Below, piece by piece: positions 41,449 through 46,721 of a stretch of 64,000 nt of DNA (positions are counted from its first letter, which is position 1; each line of letters starts with the position of its first letter). This DNA is from Abditibacterium sp. Lineage in GTDB: Bacteria; Armatimonadota; Abditibacteriia; Abditibacteriales; Abditibacteriaceae. The stretch is taken from positions 3,680,001 through 3,744,000 of the forward strand of contig CBDASK010000003.1 in the NCBI GenBank assembly GCA_965199495.1, given 5' to 3'. A model generated the notes under the pieces. The model was not told where the DNA came from. It saw only the letters and a list, made by a program, of their open reading frames with translations, and made no database searches. The position numbers and the translations under genes are program-made.

Positions 41449-41901
41449 ATGCCCAACACCAACAGGCGTCTCGTTCGCGGCGACAAAATTGAGATTTACG
41501 TTCACTTCATCTGGACGACTTTCGACCGGCAAGAATGGATCGCGCCTCATCTGGAGGCCGAACTCTTTCCGCTTATCAACGCGATGGGCCAGCGTCATGG
41601 TTGCAAAACGTTGGCGATTAACGGTGTCGAAGATCATCTGCATTGGCTGGTCAAGTATTCTTCCACCACGCTGACCTGCGATGTGGCCAAAGATTCCAAA
41701 GGCGCTTCTTCCAAATGGATGGGCGAGCAATTCGAATCGTTCAAGTGGCGCCCGACTTATGCGGCCTTTTCGGTCTCGCGCTGGAATGTGCGCAAAATCA
41801 TGAATTATATCGCGCGCCAGAAAGAACATCACGCTAATGGCACGACCGATAAACGGCTGGAAAGCGAGGACGAGTGGCTGGAAATCGCGGATGGGGAGTA
41901 G
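41449..41901 (+). mobile_element. tnpA: IS200/IS605-family HUH (Y1) transposase, REP-associated (RAYT-like)
   Basis: YVHFIWTT..R, DHLH (HUH motif), KGASSKW, NYIARQKEHH (catalytic Tyr); no tnpB; palindromes on both sides. Confidence 0.88.
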
Positions 41902-42007
41902 GCGAATAAATTCGCAGCCACAGTTAAGTGTCCACCTTCGTGGACACGGAAAATGGGTGTGTCGGCGAAGGCCGACACTTAACTGTGGCTGCGAATTTAT
42001 TCGCCTA
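41899..42007. repeat. REPIN-like palindrome right of the transposase (family E)
   Basis: taggcgaataaattcgcagccacagttaagtgtc ... gacacttaactgtggctgcgaatttattcgccta. Confidence 0.9.
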
Positions 42008-42017
42008 AACTAACCCC

Positions 42018-42662
42018 GTGAATTTATCGCTCTTTGCCGATGATGCAGCCACGCCGCCTGTATCGCCGCTAAATCTGCCCAAACATCTGCTCGACATCAA
42101 TACGATTTATCACGAGCCGAACGTTTTCGAGTTCGCGCGCGGCAGAGAAATCCGCGCGTGTTTTCCCGACTCCAATCTCATCGAAGTGCCTTCGCACTGG
42201 CAAATTCCCGAACTTCATGGCGACGCCGCAAACGATGCCGATTGGCTCGGCATCAAGCGCGAAACTTTGGTTCTGGGCGTGCGCAAGGCGATGAAAATGG
42301 AAGCCAACACGCGTTCGAGCGATTGGATCGCGCCCGCCGTGGCTAACGGTTGCGCCAGCGCGTGCGCGTATTGCGTGGCGGCGGGTACGCTTATTTCGAC
42401 GCCACAAGGCCAAGTTCCCGTCGAGCAAATCGAGGATGAAGCCGAAGTAATCGCTTTCGATAGTTCTTCGGGACAACTCGCAACAGCTCGCGTTTGCGGG
42501 TTGGCTTCGCGGGAAGTAAGCGAAGTTCTCGAAATTGATCTTGGCGACCGAGTGCTTCGTGTAACGGCAGAGCATCCGCTTTGGACGCGTAGAGGCTGGG
42601 TAAAAGCCGGAGATCTAACTCCAGACGATGAAGTTCTGTGTGATGAAAGCAGCACAGAGTAA
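42018..42662 (+). CDS. Spore photoproduct lyase family (radical SAM) N-extein (118 aa) fused to split intein N-fragment (96 aa, from 42372)
   Basis: IEVPSHWQIPELHG, LVLGVRK, DWIAP..ANGCASACAY, then intein block A CVAAGTLI, block B VTAEHPLW, GWVKAGDL, stop. Confidence 0.9.
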   Translation: MNLSLFADDAATPPVSPLNLPKHLLDINTIYHEPNVFEFARGREIRACFPDSNLIEVPSHWQIPELHGDAANDADWLGIKRETLVLGVRKAMKMEANTRSSDWIAPAVANGCASACAYCVAAGTLISTPQGQVPVEQIEDEAEVIAFDSSSGQLATARVCGLASREVSEVLEIDLGDRVLRVTAEHPLWTRRGWVKAGDLTPDDEVLCDESSTE

Positions 42663-43224
42663 TGCCGTTTTCGACATCGCACTTGTCATCGGGGAAGAGC
42701 GCGACAGGCAAAACGTGATGCGCTTGCAACTGCGTTTCGCTTCCGCAAATGCGGCAACAGCCGTCTCTCTCCAAAACGGCTCGCGCCCATTCTTTGCCAC
42801 TGCGCCGTTGTCGAAAGCCGCTTTGACTGCGTCCGTTGACATAATTGGGATTGCCCGCGCCACAATGCCGCTTCGCTATAATCGCCGCTTGAGCGCGCCG
42901 TCCCGCTCCGGCGCGCGAACACTGCGGGCAATAGCCGTAGCGGTTTTCATTGGTTTTGAACGGGGCGTCACACACGCGGCACCCCTGCCACTTGATAGTT
43001 GAGCGAGCAATGGTTCGGTCAATGGCAAACAAAACGCCTTCCCATCGGCGAACAGTGCGCGCATCGCGGCCCAGATAAAGCGCGGCCTGCCCGTAAGAAG
43101 CCACAACTTTGAACGGCATTGCTTCCATATTTGCTAAGTGTTGGCGGCACGTCGCGCAGCAAAACGCTTGAGGCGTCCGCTTGCCACACCAACCGCACGC
43201 CAGCGTGCCATTTGTCTGTCTCAT
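42391..43224 (-). CDS. HNH homing-endonuclease-like protein with Zn-finger motifs, antisense between the intein halves
   Basis: CxxC pairs; GAGNPNYVNG; WARAVLERD..CRICG...AHHV...ENGITLCCFHH (HNH core). Confidence 0.82.
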   Translation of the reverse strand: MRQTNGTLACGWCGKRTPQAFCCATCRQHLANMEAMPFKVVASYGQAALYLGRDARTVRRWEGVLFAIDRTIARSTIKWQGCRVCDAPFKTNENRYGYCPQCSRAGAGRRAQAAIIAKRHCGAGNPNYVNGRSQSGFRQRRSGKEWARAVLERDGCCRICGSETQLQAHHVLPVALFPDDKCDVENGITLCCFHHTELHRLELDLRLLPSLYASKADALPLHEALGRQDQFRELRLLPAKPTRKRELLRVVPKNYRKRLLRLHPRFARRELGLVASK

Positions 43225-44104
43225 GTTGAAATTCCGAAAAATTCAATCCATCCGCCGCGTGAGCGAACCACAAACCGTTTACAACTTTCATGTCCCCGGC
43301 CCGCAGTCGTATCTGGCCAATGGAATTGTAACCCATAACTGTTATGTCGCTCGTCGCAAAGGCCATGCTAACCCGATTACGACGTTCGTCAACATCGAAC
43401 AAATGACGAAATATCTGGCGCGTCACGCGATGCGTCAGGGCGAAAAAAGGGCAGCCACGCCCGCCGACGACAAATTATGGGTTTACGAAATTGGCTGCAA
43501 CTCCGACACTTCGATTGATGCGGCGATTTCGGATAACGTGCGCGATTTTGTCGAACTGTTTAGGACGTTGCCCAACGCCAAAGGCACTTTCGCCACCAAG
43601 TGGGTCAACCGCGCGATGTTCGATTACGACCCGCAACGCAAAACGCGCGTAAGGTTTTCCCTCATGCCCCAGCGCATGGCGAAGTTAGTTGACGTTCGCA
43701 CTTCGCCAATTAGCGAGCGCATCGCGGCGATGAACGATTTTTACGAAGCGGGCTACGAAGTCAATGTCAACTTTTCGCCGGTCGTCATCGAAGACGGTTG
43801 GTTGGAGGCTTACGACGAACTGTGGGACGAAATGAACGACGTTTTGCGGCCCGAAGTGAAAGCCGATTTGGTGGCCGAAGTGATTTTCCTGACGCATCAC
43901 GCCGGTTTGCACGAAGTCAATTTGCAGTGGCATCCGCGCGCCGAAGCCGTCTTGTGGCAACCCGCAATGCAGGAGCGCAAAATCTCGCAGGGCGGCGGTA
44001 TCAACGTGCGTTACAAAGTGAGTTTGAAGCAGCCTTTGGTCGCGCAGTTCGTGGCGCGAATGCGCGCTAAGTTGCCGGAGTGTCGCGTGCGTTACGCGTT
44101 TTGA
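43223..44104 (+). CDS. Split intein C-fragment (39 aa) fused to spore photoproduct lyase family C-extein
   Basis: MLKFRKIQSIRR...VYNFHV...YLANGIVTHN|CYVARRKGHANPIT; WVYEIGCNSD, FATKWVN, RVRFSLMP, EVIFLTH, RVRYAF. Confidence 0.9.
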   Translation: MLKFRKIQSIRRVSEPQTVYNFHVPGPQSYLANGIVTHNCYVARRKGHANPITTFVNIEQMTKYLARHAMRQGEKRAATPADDKLWVYEIGCNSDTSIDAAISDNVRDFVELFRTLPNAKGTFATKWVNRAMFDYDPQRKTRVRFSLMPQRMAKLVDVRTSPISERIAAMNDFYEAGYEVNVNFSPVVIEDGWLEAYDELWDEMNDVLRPEVKADLVAEVIFLTHHAGLHEVNLQWHPRAEAVLWQPAMQERKISQGGGINVRYKVSLKQPLVAQFVARMRAKLPECRVRYAF

Positions 44105-45015
44105 GCGGGTTTATTCGCCATGACTTCGACTGCGCGCGGCACGATTTCAAATGTCATCGGCGCCGTGCCGATTAACTCGCCATCCACCAAAATTGGCCAA
44201 TTGCGGTCACACCACAGTTCCACTTTGCGAGCGCGACGCATAACCACGCGCGGATGATGAACGTGCGCGCCCCGAAACACGCCGGGGAAAGCGCGCGCAA
44301 ATTCCATTTTGCTTGCGTCTTGAATCACGCAAATATCGAATAATCCGTCATCTAACTGCGCGTCGGGCGCGACTTGCATTCCGCCGCCATACGATTTCGC
44401 GTTCGCCACGGCACATAAAAGCGCGCACGTATCGAGCAGTTCGCCATCCAATCTCAGGCGCAGGCGCGCGGGACGCAGACGTTGCAGTTCGAGTGTCGCC
44501 GCCGCCAGATATGCAGCCACGCCGCTGATGTGTTTCCAAACCGGATGCGTGCGCCCGGCGTTGATGCGGCGCGCGACGAGGGAATCGAAGCCGCAACCGG
44601 CGATGTTGAGGAACAATCGCGATTGCTCGCCGTGTTGACCGTAAGTCGCGCGCCCGATGTCAATGGTTCGGCTGTGCCCGCCAAATAAAATCTGAATCGC
44701 GCTGTCTAAGTCGTTGCCAATTCCCAGCGTGCGAGCGAAGTCGTTGCCGGTGCCCAACGGCAAAACGCCCAATTTGGTCTTTGTTCCATGAACCGCGTTC
44801 AAGACCTCGCCCATCGTTCCGTCGCCGCCCGCCGCCGCCACGATGTCGGCGCCGTGGCTGATAGCGACGCGCGCCAACGCGCGCACCTCGGACGGCGATT
44901 TAGTTTCGATGATTTCAAACGCCAAATCGCCCGCGTATCGCGCGATTTGTTCGTGCAATGCGGCGCGCGACACGCGACCACGTCCGGCGGCGGGATTGAA
45001 AATAATGGCGAGCAT
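44092..45015 (-). CDS. Diacylglycerol-kinase-family lipid kinase (YegS/DagK-like)
   Basis: NPAAG, GGDGT, PLGTGNDFAR, YGGG, DGE. Confidence 0.93.
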   Translation of the reverse strand: MLAIIFNPAAGRGRVSRAALHEQIARYAGDLAFEIIETKSPSEVRALARVAISHGADIVAAAGGDGTMGEVLNAVHGTKTKLGVLPLGTGNDFARTLGIGNDLDSAIQILFGGHSRTIDIGRATYGQHGEQSRLFLNIAGCGFDSLVARRINAGRTHPVWKHISGVAAYLAAATLELQRLRPARLRLRLDGELLDTCALLCAVANAKSYGGGMQVAPDAQLDDGLFDICVIQDASKMEFARAFPGVFRGAHVHHPRVVMRRARKVELWCDRNWPILVDGELIGTAPMTFEIVPRAVEVMANKPAQNA

Positions 45016-45728: not shown

Positions 45729-46721
45729 TCAAAACAACGACAGTTGGCGCGCCGAACTTTCGATTTTAGCTTCTGCCAACGGCGCCGCGTCCAAGCCCAA
45801 ATCGCGCAATTCGGCGGCGAACTCCGACGCGTATCCGTGCGTCGTCCAGACCTGCGAGGCGCCAGTTTGCCGCACGTATTCGTGCAAATCGGCATGGTCG
45901 GCATGATCCGATAAGGCAAACGCGGCGTCTGTGCCAAAGCGCGAGGGATGAGAATTCTGCGCCCAACCCGAAATATAGGCCGTGCGCACGCGTTGTCGCC
46001 GCGTGAAATCGTCCCACCAACGCCCGCGCTGGCACTGCGACGCGCATAGCAAGACGCCCTCGACATCTTCAAATTGTTCGTGGCGCTTATATTCGGGAAA
46101 TCGCACGCCGTGTCGCGCATAGACATCCGAAATTTGCGCGTGTTTCAGGTGCAATGTCACCGACAAATCGGCGTCGCACAATCCGGCCAAAATCTCCTGT
46201 CCTTTGCCCAGCGAATAGCAAAATAAAACCGGCGTTTCGCCATTATTCAAAGTTTGGCGACACCAATCCGCAATCTGGCCGACGACGTGGCTGCTCGAAT
46301 CGAACCGGTAGCGCGGCAAACCAAACGTCGTTTCCATCACCACAATATCGGCGCGCGGCACCTCGATTGGTTCGCTCGAAAAACCCGGTTTGAGCTTGAA
46401 ATCGCCCGAATACAGCAACCGCACGCCGTCGGCTTCGACCAACATTTGCGACGAACCCAGAACGTGACCGGCGGGCAAGAGCGAAACCTGTGCGCGGCCC
46501 CAATTGAACGGCTCACCCCATTGCAAATGGTGAAACTGCGATTTGGTCGCGCCGCGCACGCGCATCATGGCGGCGGTGGCGGGCGAACAAAACACGCGCC
46601 CGTGCCGCTTCATGTGGTCGGCGTGCGCGTGCGAAACAAACGCGGCCTCTTGCGCGCGGTGCGGGTCGAGCCACAACTTGTGCTGCGGCAGGTAAACCCC
46701 GTTTTTATCCAAGACAATCAT
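45729..46721 (-). CDS. MBL-fold/beta-CASP exonuclease of the ligase-associated DNA-repair type
   Basis: SHAHADH, PAGHVLGS, YSGDFK, ETTFGLP.Y, YSLGKGQ, LSDHAD, THG. Confidence 0.88.
   Translation of the reverse strand: MIVLDKNGVYLPQHKLWLDPHRAQEAAFVSHAHADHMKRHGRVFCSPATAAMMRVRGATKSQFHHLQWGEPFNWGRAQVSLLPAGHVLGSSQMLVEADGVRLLYSGDFKLKPGFSSEPIEVPRADIVVMETTFGLPRYRFDSSSHVVGQIADWCRQTLNNGETPVLFCYSLGKGQEILAGLCDADLSVTLHLKHAQISDVYARHGVRFPEYKRHEQFEDVEGVLLCASQCQRGRWWDDFTRRQRVRTAYISGWAQNSHPSRFGTDAAFALSDHADHADLHEYVRQTGASQVWTTHGYASEFAAELRDLGLDAAPLAEAKIESSARQLSLF

Follow-up and report, generated by a model that had tools for sequence, protein, structure and literature searches.

Introduction

Fractured genes, in which a split intein interrupts a host protein and a free-standing endonuclease gene lies between the two halves, were described by Dassa et al. 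(2009, PMC2677866). Here we analyse a 64,000-nucleotide stretch of an Abditibacterium sp. genome (the window; contig CBDASK010000003.1 of assembly GCA_965199495.1, positions 3,680,001 to 3,744,000), in which a gene for a radical S-adenosylmethionine (SAM) protein of the spore photoproduct lyase (SPL) family is divided between two open reading frames (ORFs) by a split intein, with an N-terminal fragment (IntN) and a C-terminal fragment (IntC), and in which an HNH endonuclease gene on the opposite strand runs through the gap and into IntN. Like the fractured genes, as set out in the part of PMC2677866 concerned with them, this locus breaks a host enzyme at one locus, its intein halves are complementary in charge and it has a phage connection; the intervening endonuclease gene likewise supplies the stop for the upstream half and directly adjoins the start of the downstream half.

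The SPL class is not a new host for inteins. A survey of 2015 listed 48 inteins from actinobacterial SplB/COG1533 proteins (PMC4760082), and both these and the intein-containing Rv2578c family (NF038136) resemble the present case in placing an intein in an SPL-class radical SAM protein, so that contiguous inteins of the SplB class are already in print. A weak match (E 0.003) suggests that the Rv2578c/SplB-class inteins sit at a similar CxxxCxxC site. The Actinobacteria proteins belong to another subfamily than TIGR03886, to which the host described here is assigned below, and the survey passage does not call their inteins split (PMC4760082). An earlier reading of the window, made from its letters alone (the sequence-only reading), placed fractured genes mainly in phage and metagenomic replication genes and knew of no description of such a host. 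The antisense HNH gene overprinted on IntN, which is the main feature here, makes this chromosomal SPL locus a fractured gene of that kind; the statement of the sequence-only reading about the host was too strong in view of the 48 inteins listed in PMC4760082. Neither an antisense HNH gene overlapping a split intein nor a split SPL intein is described in the open literature that we searched, supplements excluded; supplementary material of PMC2677866 and PMC4760082 might touch on the point.

Results

The locus lies on a 4.7-Mb contig of a genome that is 95% complete (G000). Its features are:

42018 to 42371, plus strand: N-extein of the SPL-family radical SAM protein, 118 aa, with a GTG start; the uninterrupted ortholog L020 begins with identical residues
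42372 to 42662, plus strand: IntN, 96 aa, acidic, with C1 at 42372, block B (T65-x-x-H68) and a TAA stop at 42660-42662
43224 to 42391, minus strand: HNH endonuclease ORF, 277 aa (Pfam HNH_2, PHROG HNH)
42391 to 42662, minus strand: dual-coding overlap of 272 nt, holding the end of the HNH motif and a tail of ~78 aa, antisense to IntN
43222 to 43225: CATG common to the two head-to-head starts (HNH on the minus strand, IntC on the plus strand), with the same geometry in L022 and L049
43223 to 43339, plus strand: IntC, 39 aa, basic, with block F (YNFH) and block G (THN); TIGR01443 above cut-off
43340 to 44104, plus strand: C-extein, 254 aa, beginning with the +1 Cys (third Fe-S ligand), then Tyr+2
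43365 to 43392, minus strand: weak sigma-70-like site, a candidate HNH promoter ~140 nt upstream of the HNH start, not above chance

The gap of 560 nt between the halves houses the 5' two thirds of the HNH ORF, which starts head-to-head with IntC and whose last 272 nt overlie IntN. As judged from the loci aligned below, this reverse gene interrupts a mini-intein where endonucleases usually insert and continues along the antisense strand of IntN, from which it acquires a helical tail of ~78 aa, and the HNH motif supplies the IntN stop. The sequence-only reading took the locus for a natural split intein in a chromosomal radical SAM gene of the SPL family, and this holds, the intein being of class 1: its catalytic motifs do not vary, IntC shows purifying selection and the two halves are complementary in charge. 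Its coordinates and counts were all reproduced (C1 at 42372; an IntN of 96 aa with 19 D/E vs 7 K/R and a stop at 42660-42662; an IntC of 39 aa with 5 K/R vs 1 E, starting at 43223 in another frame and ending in THN before the Cys; exteins of 118 and 254 aa, 372 aa in all). It also gave the size of the gap correctly, but did not notice that an HNH gene on the minus strand occupies the gap and extends over IntN. Nor is there one continuous plus-strand ORF, as each plus-strand frame across 42372-43339 holds 8-16 stops. An inversion artefact or a frameshifted contiguous intein was considered and rejected, because no plus frame is open and the same geometry is found in 11 loci. The assembly is borne out by contigs of run X1, possibly the source sample and hence not independent of the assembly, which tile 42102-44344 with 0 differing letters, and by the split arrangement of 10 other loci.

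Both halves match SPL models (Pfam PF20903, NCBIfam TIGR03886) as well as intein/Hint models, PT-HINT and TIGR01443 being above cut-off and TIGR01445 below it (19 vs 24.5). The intein has the features of class 1, that is, the C1 nucleophile, TxxH in block B, the penultimate His, the terminal Asn and the +1 Cys; and C1, T65 and H68 of IntN, H38 and N39 of IntC and the +1 Cys are invariant in 10/10 aligned loci. It is naturally split, into two separate ORFs with their own stop and start, a state conserved over 11 loci, and the charge complementarity of the halves is retained in relatives. Insertion was precise, since empty alleles carry exactly the joined-extein sequence: the joined exteins align over 372/372 residues, at 89% identity, to the uninterrupted ortholog L020 in genus-mate G004, and the empty joint 42371>43340 is present in run X3. 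A docking model of IntN with IntC scored 0.70 vs 0.00 for the best control, with contact agreement between runs of at least 98% and partner predicted local distance difference test (pLDDT) scores of at least 81. The pass mark is attained by 116/157 solved pairs and 2/215 mismatched pairs, and the pass probably reflects the likeness of the model to solved Hint structures.

The host gene belongs to the SPL-like family TIGR03886 and not to SplB proper, as assigned by profile scores. An empty ortholog (544.3) and the contiguous, intein-bearing P0028 (523.7) both exceed the TIGR03886 cut-off of 437.55, and the window's halves score 126.6 and 399.1 when taken separately; on TIGR04070 (SplB proper) the empty ortholog reaches 122.7 bits against a cut-off of 400. 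The N-extein carries Cys112, Cys116 and Tyr118 of the CxxxCxxC region, and in the alignment the C-extein Cys at 43496-43498 corresponds to the fourth and essential Cys of SPL. When L020 is aligned to PDB 4FHC, equivalents are present for all the SplB residues C91/C95/C98, Y97, Y99 and C141, which are named in the part of PMC3742179 that concerns them. Cys116-Ala-Tyr-Cys1 makes a CxxC pair across the junction of N-extein and IntN, and the N-precursor already holds a CxxxCxxC motif with the intein C1 as its third cysteine. A second, uninterrupted SPL-like gene is present in G000 (L045, C3:1704367-1705266); it scores 313 bits on TIGR04070 (cut-off 400) and is closer to SplB.

The HNH protein has an N-terminus with Cys clusters (putative Zn fingers), a core of H169-H170...N186...H195...H199 and then the helical C-terminal tail; the roles that we assign to the motif residues are presumptive. 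The ORF matches PHROG 144 (HNH) at E 1e-11. Its predicted fold has a mean pLDDT of 85.7 and a predicted template modelling score of 0.53, with short helices at residues 201-270 (pLDDT 88-96). The protein has the beta-beta-alpha metal fold of HNH nucleases; GVE2 HNH is the best fold match, with a middling score (Z 6.5, root-mean-square deviation 4.5, 84 aligned residues), and Foldseek gave no match at E <= 0.001. The H-H...N-x8-H-x3-H pattern is invariant in 26/26 aligned HNH proteins and occurs in 42/45 proteins, one being an unrelated match and the three misses being fragments.

In the overlap, the codon of His195 in the window (42642-42640) lies opposite IntN residues 90-91 and that of His199 (42630-42628) opposite residues 86-87; across the split loci, the terminal motif histidines face IntN residues 91 and 87 in 10/11, and 92 and 88 in the phage. 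In 9/11 split loci, the HNH codons for [IV]-T (Ile188-Thr189 in the window) give the IntN stop when read on the opposite strand. Since the stop and the HNH motif codons are thus the same DNA, IntN is exactly 96 aa long in 62/68 N-half proteins. As IntN is a Hint homolog, the tail derives from the IntN antisense strand. The reverse derivation, of the intein from an ancestral tail, was rejected both for this reason and because the free HNH gene L194 carries a decayed shadow of IntN on its opposite strand (E 5.8e-8). The H-x3-H helix more likely came with the HNH gene, in which case it would have overwritten the last ~10 codons of IntN.

Third codon positions of the sense frame are second positions of the antisense frame, so that conserving the one frame does not by itself preserve the other. 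Over IntN codons 12-81 the antisense frame nevertheless has 0 stops in 11/11 split loci, where synonymous recoding would lead one to expect 1.6-3.7 (probability of zero stops 0.004-0.13 for each locus), whereas five contiguous inteins of Chloroflexota have gathered 5-7 antisense stops in the same stretch. Among 10 split loci, IntN shows a synonymous difference of 0.30, compared with 0.63 for IntC and 0.59-0.63 for the exteins, and it has the lower value in 45/45 pairs (which are not independent); the contrast is weaker in contiguous inteins (0.44 vs 0.53). Because synonymous change in IntN is halved, both strands of the overlap are, on these alignments, under selection. Outside the overlap, the proportion of nonsynonymous differences (pN) lies below that of synonymous differences (pS) in seven pairs, both for the HNH-only part (pN 0.18-0.36 vs pS 0.65-0.99) and for IntC (0.09-0.28 vs 0.46-1.01), and it is likewise well under pS in the C-extein. 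Identities follow the state of the locus. Split loci keep both frames (HNH 65%, IntN 71%); three free HNH loci keep the HNH frame (54-60%, 0 stops), their IntN frame being at 23-30% with 1-7 stops; and six contiguous inteins keep IntN (51-60%), their HNH frame being at 22-46% with 3-7 stops.

The split arrangement with an antisense HNH gene is present in 11 distinct loci, namely the window, G012, eight distinct metagenome loci and a complete 171-kb phage (G303), with HNH on the minus strand in 11/11. G012 and G303 were found via SPL or intein queries and not via HNH. A metagenome scan with HNH gave 12 loci, one of which is a free HNH gene; the other 11 have the SPL N-half and IntN opposite the tail and represent 8 distinct loci, with IntC and the C-extein also on the contig in 8/8. 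Among 41 related genomes, 11 besides G000 have a close ortholog with a readable insertion site: nine are empty, one is split with an antisense HNH gene (G012, HNH 60% identical) and one has a contiguous mini-intein (G003). A full-length HNH match occurs only in G000 and G012 among 301 genomes of the phylum, and any match to the tail in 5/151 genomes of another order. Only L070 and L150, on one contig, carry this HNH gene with its tail among 121 viral loci obtained from intein queries. L055, whose neighbours match PHROG families, a dCMP deaminase among them, appears phage-like too. No relative emerged when viral contigs were scanned with either the HNH alignment or P0040, and 11 GenBank phage records match the HNH core only (17-19% of the query). 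N-half proteins are named from Cyanobacteria (Leptolyngbya, Nodosilinea, Oculatellaceae), Rubrobacter and Abditibacteriota, in protein records only, with HNH seen for few.

Four states are found among relatives: empty, split with HNH, contiguous mini-intein and free HNH. The intein trees, rooted on P0031 and P0032, leave out L057, L059 and L060 (no IntC on the contig) as well as L058, L194, L195 and L196. They contain 10 contiguous mini-inteins, whose junctions all differ in length and sequence. One of these, P0028, still has CDES, the end typical of the split type, and groups with the window's intein as its sister (support 96/91 in one tree and 94/91 in the other); its junction is the same as the joint 42650-GGC-43226 in runs X3 and X7, which rests on one contig each, placed at 80% likeness and hence from relatives. 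In the contiguous L063 the antisense tail is still open, and L021 has one stop in the same stretch. A single clade of contiguous inteins was rejected by the approximately unbiased test (p-AU 3.3e-5), for a group defined by state and tested after the first tree had been seen. The free HNH gene L194, intact and with its tail, lies divergently just upstream of an SPL gene bearing a contiguous intein; two more free copies, L195 and L058, gave matches in the C-terminal part only, and L058, which lacks the N-terminal part, stands beside an ORF that we take to be transposase-like. On a host tree of 37 rows (a quick tree with two long branches, from which L053 and L056, with cut C-exteins, near-duplicates and partial loci were left out), intein presence changes 8 times or more, and L055 has a 65% identical intein inside a 40% identical extein.

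The tail also occurs outside these loci. When clustered at 50%, the proteins gathered by a profile of it come to 32 representatives, among which are full-length forms, forms of ~140-175 aa and one unrelated protein that matches in the core alone. P0016, P0045 (cluster n=45), P0046, P0051, P0053 and P0055 are HNH proteins of 140-175 aa with the tail and without the N-terminal Cys-rich region, and such short proteins are possibly a free-living descendant family. P0144 has the same IntN after a different N-extein, with a CxxxCxxC-like motif completed by the intein C1 and no SPL Pfam match; possibly, the element has also invaded another family of radical SAM proteins.

Around the locus, a local promoter scan gave 2 sites vs 1.1 +/- 0.9 expected, terminator counts were likewise not above chance, and an Rfam scan had 0 matches at the gathering score. 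At 41449-42007 stand an IS200/Y1 tyrosine transposase gene and, after it, a 49-nt inverted repeat (41899-41947 / 41959-42007) that ends 10 nt ahead of the SPL start and has 63 blastn matches in the genome (self and both strands counted); we take the pair to resemble a system of the repetitive extragenic palindrome/associated tyrosine transposase (REP/RAYT) type. At 45729-46721 on the minus strand, 1.6 kb from the SPL gene, is a gene like that of a ligase-associated DNA damage response exonuclease (TIGR04122, 249 bits vs a cut-off of 325). Elsewhere, a PHROG 8420 endonuclease stands beside the fractured gene in L055 (1968-2870) and another ORF neighbours it in L051 (228-1820); presumably these are like UvsE and photolyase, respectively, and thus UV-repair-like neighbours. 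G000 also has, at about 1533000-1538500 of C3, a 1635-aa open frame with two large in-frame inteins, which we assume to be a class II ribonucleotide reductase.

Discussion

We think it likely that the locus is a two-strand composite homing element in an SPL-family radical SAM gene. The two plus-strand halves would be translated separately, IntN and IntC would associate, and trans-splicing would, very probably, join Tyr118 to Cys+1, restoring the third Fe-S ligand of CxxxCxxC and uniting both tyrosines and the fourth cysteine in one enzyme of 372 aa. The best evidence that the C-half is translated is the selection on IntC, because HNH barely overlaps it. The HNH protein is almost certainly translated as well, and on balance we favour its being an active nuclease that cuts element-free SPL alleles, with intein and HNH spreading as one unit. 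Loss of the HNH-only part would re-fuse the intein to a contiguous mini-intein, as appears to have happened several times, and HNH could leave as a free gene that keeps the intein-derived tail.

Several observations weigh against this proposal. HNH served as the query for eight of the 11 split loci, which biases them toward open antisense frames. Mobility is questioned by the lack of a co-conversion signal around the insertion site in 13 allele pairs and by the similarity of intein and extein identities over the whole set, which fits long co-descent as well as homing; the deep branches of the intein trees lack resolution. With regard to function, the window has no clear ribosome-binding site ahead of IntC, L049 has a frameshift near the C-terminus of the SPL C-half, and the uninterrupted SPL-like paralog could cover the repair function. 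The best match of IntN among PDB structures, ahead of the NrdJ-1 and RecA inteins, is a bacterial intein-like (BIL) domain (2LWY). Such domains tend to cleave rather than splice.

An alternative that is unlikely but keeps some weight is that HNH is a hyperparasite which targeted the junction of contiguous mini-inteins and invaded several times, the contiguous forms being ancestral. It would match step II of the gene-breaking model, as given in the relevant passage of PMC2677866, and the five Chloroflexota inteins, a clade of their own with 5-7 antisense stops, may never have held HNH. Counts of changes cannot separate gain from loss. What speaks against it is that contiguous junctions vary in length and sequence and so offer no common target, that P0028 retains a split-type end next to the window's intein, and that the HNH-like antisense tail survives open in L063 and with one stop in L021; 68 split N-halves, moreover, stand against few long contiguous SPL forms (3/8 matches). 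It is improbable, too, that HNH no longer homes and has been co-opted by the repair gene as a domesticated partner or as its antisense regulator. The divergent position of L194 upstream of an intein-bearing SPL gene would suit such a role, as would the geometry of the gap, by which any plus-strand transcript through it is fully complementary to the HNH message, but the SPL gene is empty in 9/11 close relatives with a readable site, and HNH is patchy in its spread, being full-length in only two of the 301 phylum genomes and present in a phage.

That the halves associate without ligation, by BIL-like cleavage or by non-covalent assembly as in nrdA of phage Aeh1, seems quite improbable. This would agree with the BIL match of IntN, with the nearest outside relatives of the intein (P0031-P0033, in which 2-3 tandem Hint domains are fused to a Tim44-like domain, a non-enzyme context) and with an N-precursor that already has its CxxxCxxC through C1. 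Set against this, the splicing residues and the +1 Cys do not vary in 10/10 aligned loci, empty alleles are exactly the joined sequence, and the enzyme would hardly be expected to accommodate a folded Hint domain between two ligands of the same cluster. Hardly credible, finally, is a decaying pseudogene or an assembly artefact, with the antisense ORF a mere shadow of intein conservation. The paralog and the frameshift of L049 would fit decay, but IntC, the C-extein and the HNH-only part are all under purifying selection, the antisense frame gathers stops in contiguous inteins, and the X1 contigs match the window without a difference.

Starting from the composite homing element, we tentatively suggest a broader history, the odds of which we put somewhat below even, for an interlocked mobile element on two strands of a kind absent from the papers that we searched. 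A new folded module would have arisen from the antisense strand of an intein and been built permanently into an active homing nuclease, which retains it even after departing from the intein. Neither partner would easily be lost alone, because the metal-binding helix of the nuclease and the stop of the intein are the same DNA, and empty, split, re-fused and uncoupled states would form a cycle across several phyla and phages. Opposite-strand transcription, possibly with a redox or Fe-S trap at Cys116-C1, may tie nuclease expression and enzyme maturation to stress. Two elements of this are speculative: that a plus-strand transcript through the gap could act antisense to the HNH message, and that Cys116-x-x-C1 could work as a redox trap by analogy with the MoaA intein.

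The locus is a clean natural case of a protein module born by antisense overprinting, for which intein-only and nuclease-only alleles provide both controls, and the question of how new domains arise becomes directly testable. It also shows that fractured genes exist in bacterial chromosomes, hidden by annotation, as N-halves are named 'Hint domain' or 'hypothetical' and most HNH records are unnamed. Dozens of natural IntN variants with IntC partners of 38-39 aa are candidate ligation tools, for which matched fused versions are available.

Individual features of the locus have counterparts elsewhere. The HNH gene of the phage ShiLan methylase, as presented in PMC11855218, is likewise of the homing type and concealed in another reading frame of its host gene; an intein or other splicing domain is absent there and the host frame stays open, whereas here the host is broken and would rely on trans-splicing. 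The MoaA intein of Pyrococcus abyssi, for which a redox trap is discussed in a review (PMC10663303), shares an N-extein cysteine before C1 and an oxygen-sensitive Fe-S enzyme as host, but the passage concerned does not call it split and mentions no antisense nuclease, and the redox trap is extended to our locus as an analogy only. SplB itself (PDB 4FHC; PMC3742179, in the part on these residues) aligns with the host in CxxxCxxC, both flanking tyrosines and the fourth cysteine, and is distant by profile, given the TIGR04070 score of the ortholog.

The closest comparison remains that with fractured genes, and in the passages of PMC2677866 on those loci the differences are clear. There, three ORFs lie on one strand, whereas HNH is here on the opposite strand and the same-strand arrangement is absent. 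The nucleases are GIY-YIG or Vsr-like, in contrast to an HNH nuclease by Pfam, PHROGs and fold. Overlaps are of 6-69 bp and with the downstream gene, compared with 272 nt shared with IntN that include two motif histidines. Those loci are considered viral, and the present arrangement occurs in bacterial chromosomes. Re-fusion and escape of HNH, both seen here, do not figure in the passage on the gene-breaking model. The fractured-gene model is thereby extended to an inverted, overlapping nuclease, and splitting is indicated to be reversible. We conclude that the locus is a fractured gene with an antisense, overprinted HNH gene, which works like fractured genes but departs from two of their stated features.

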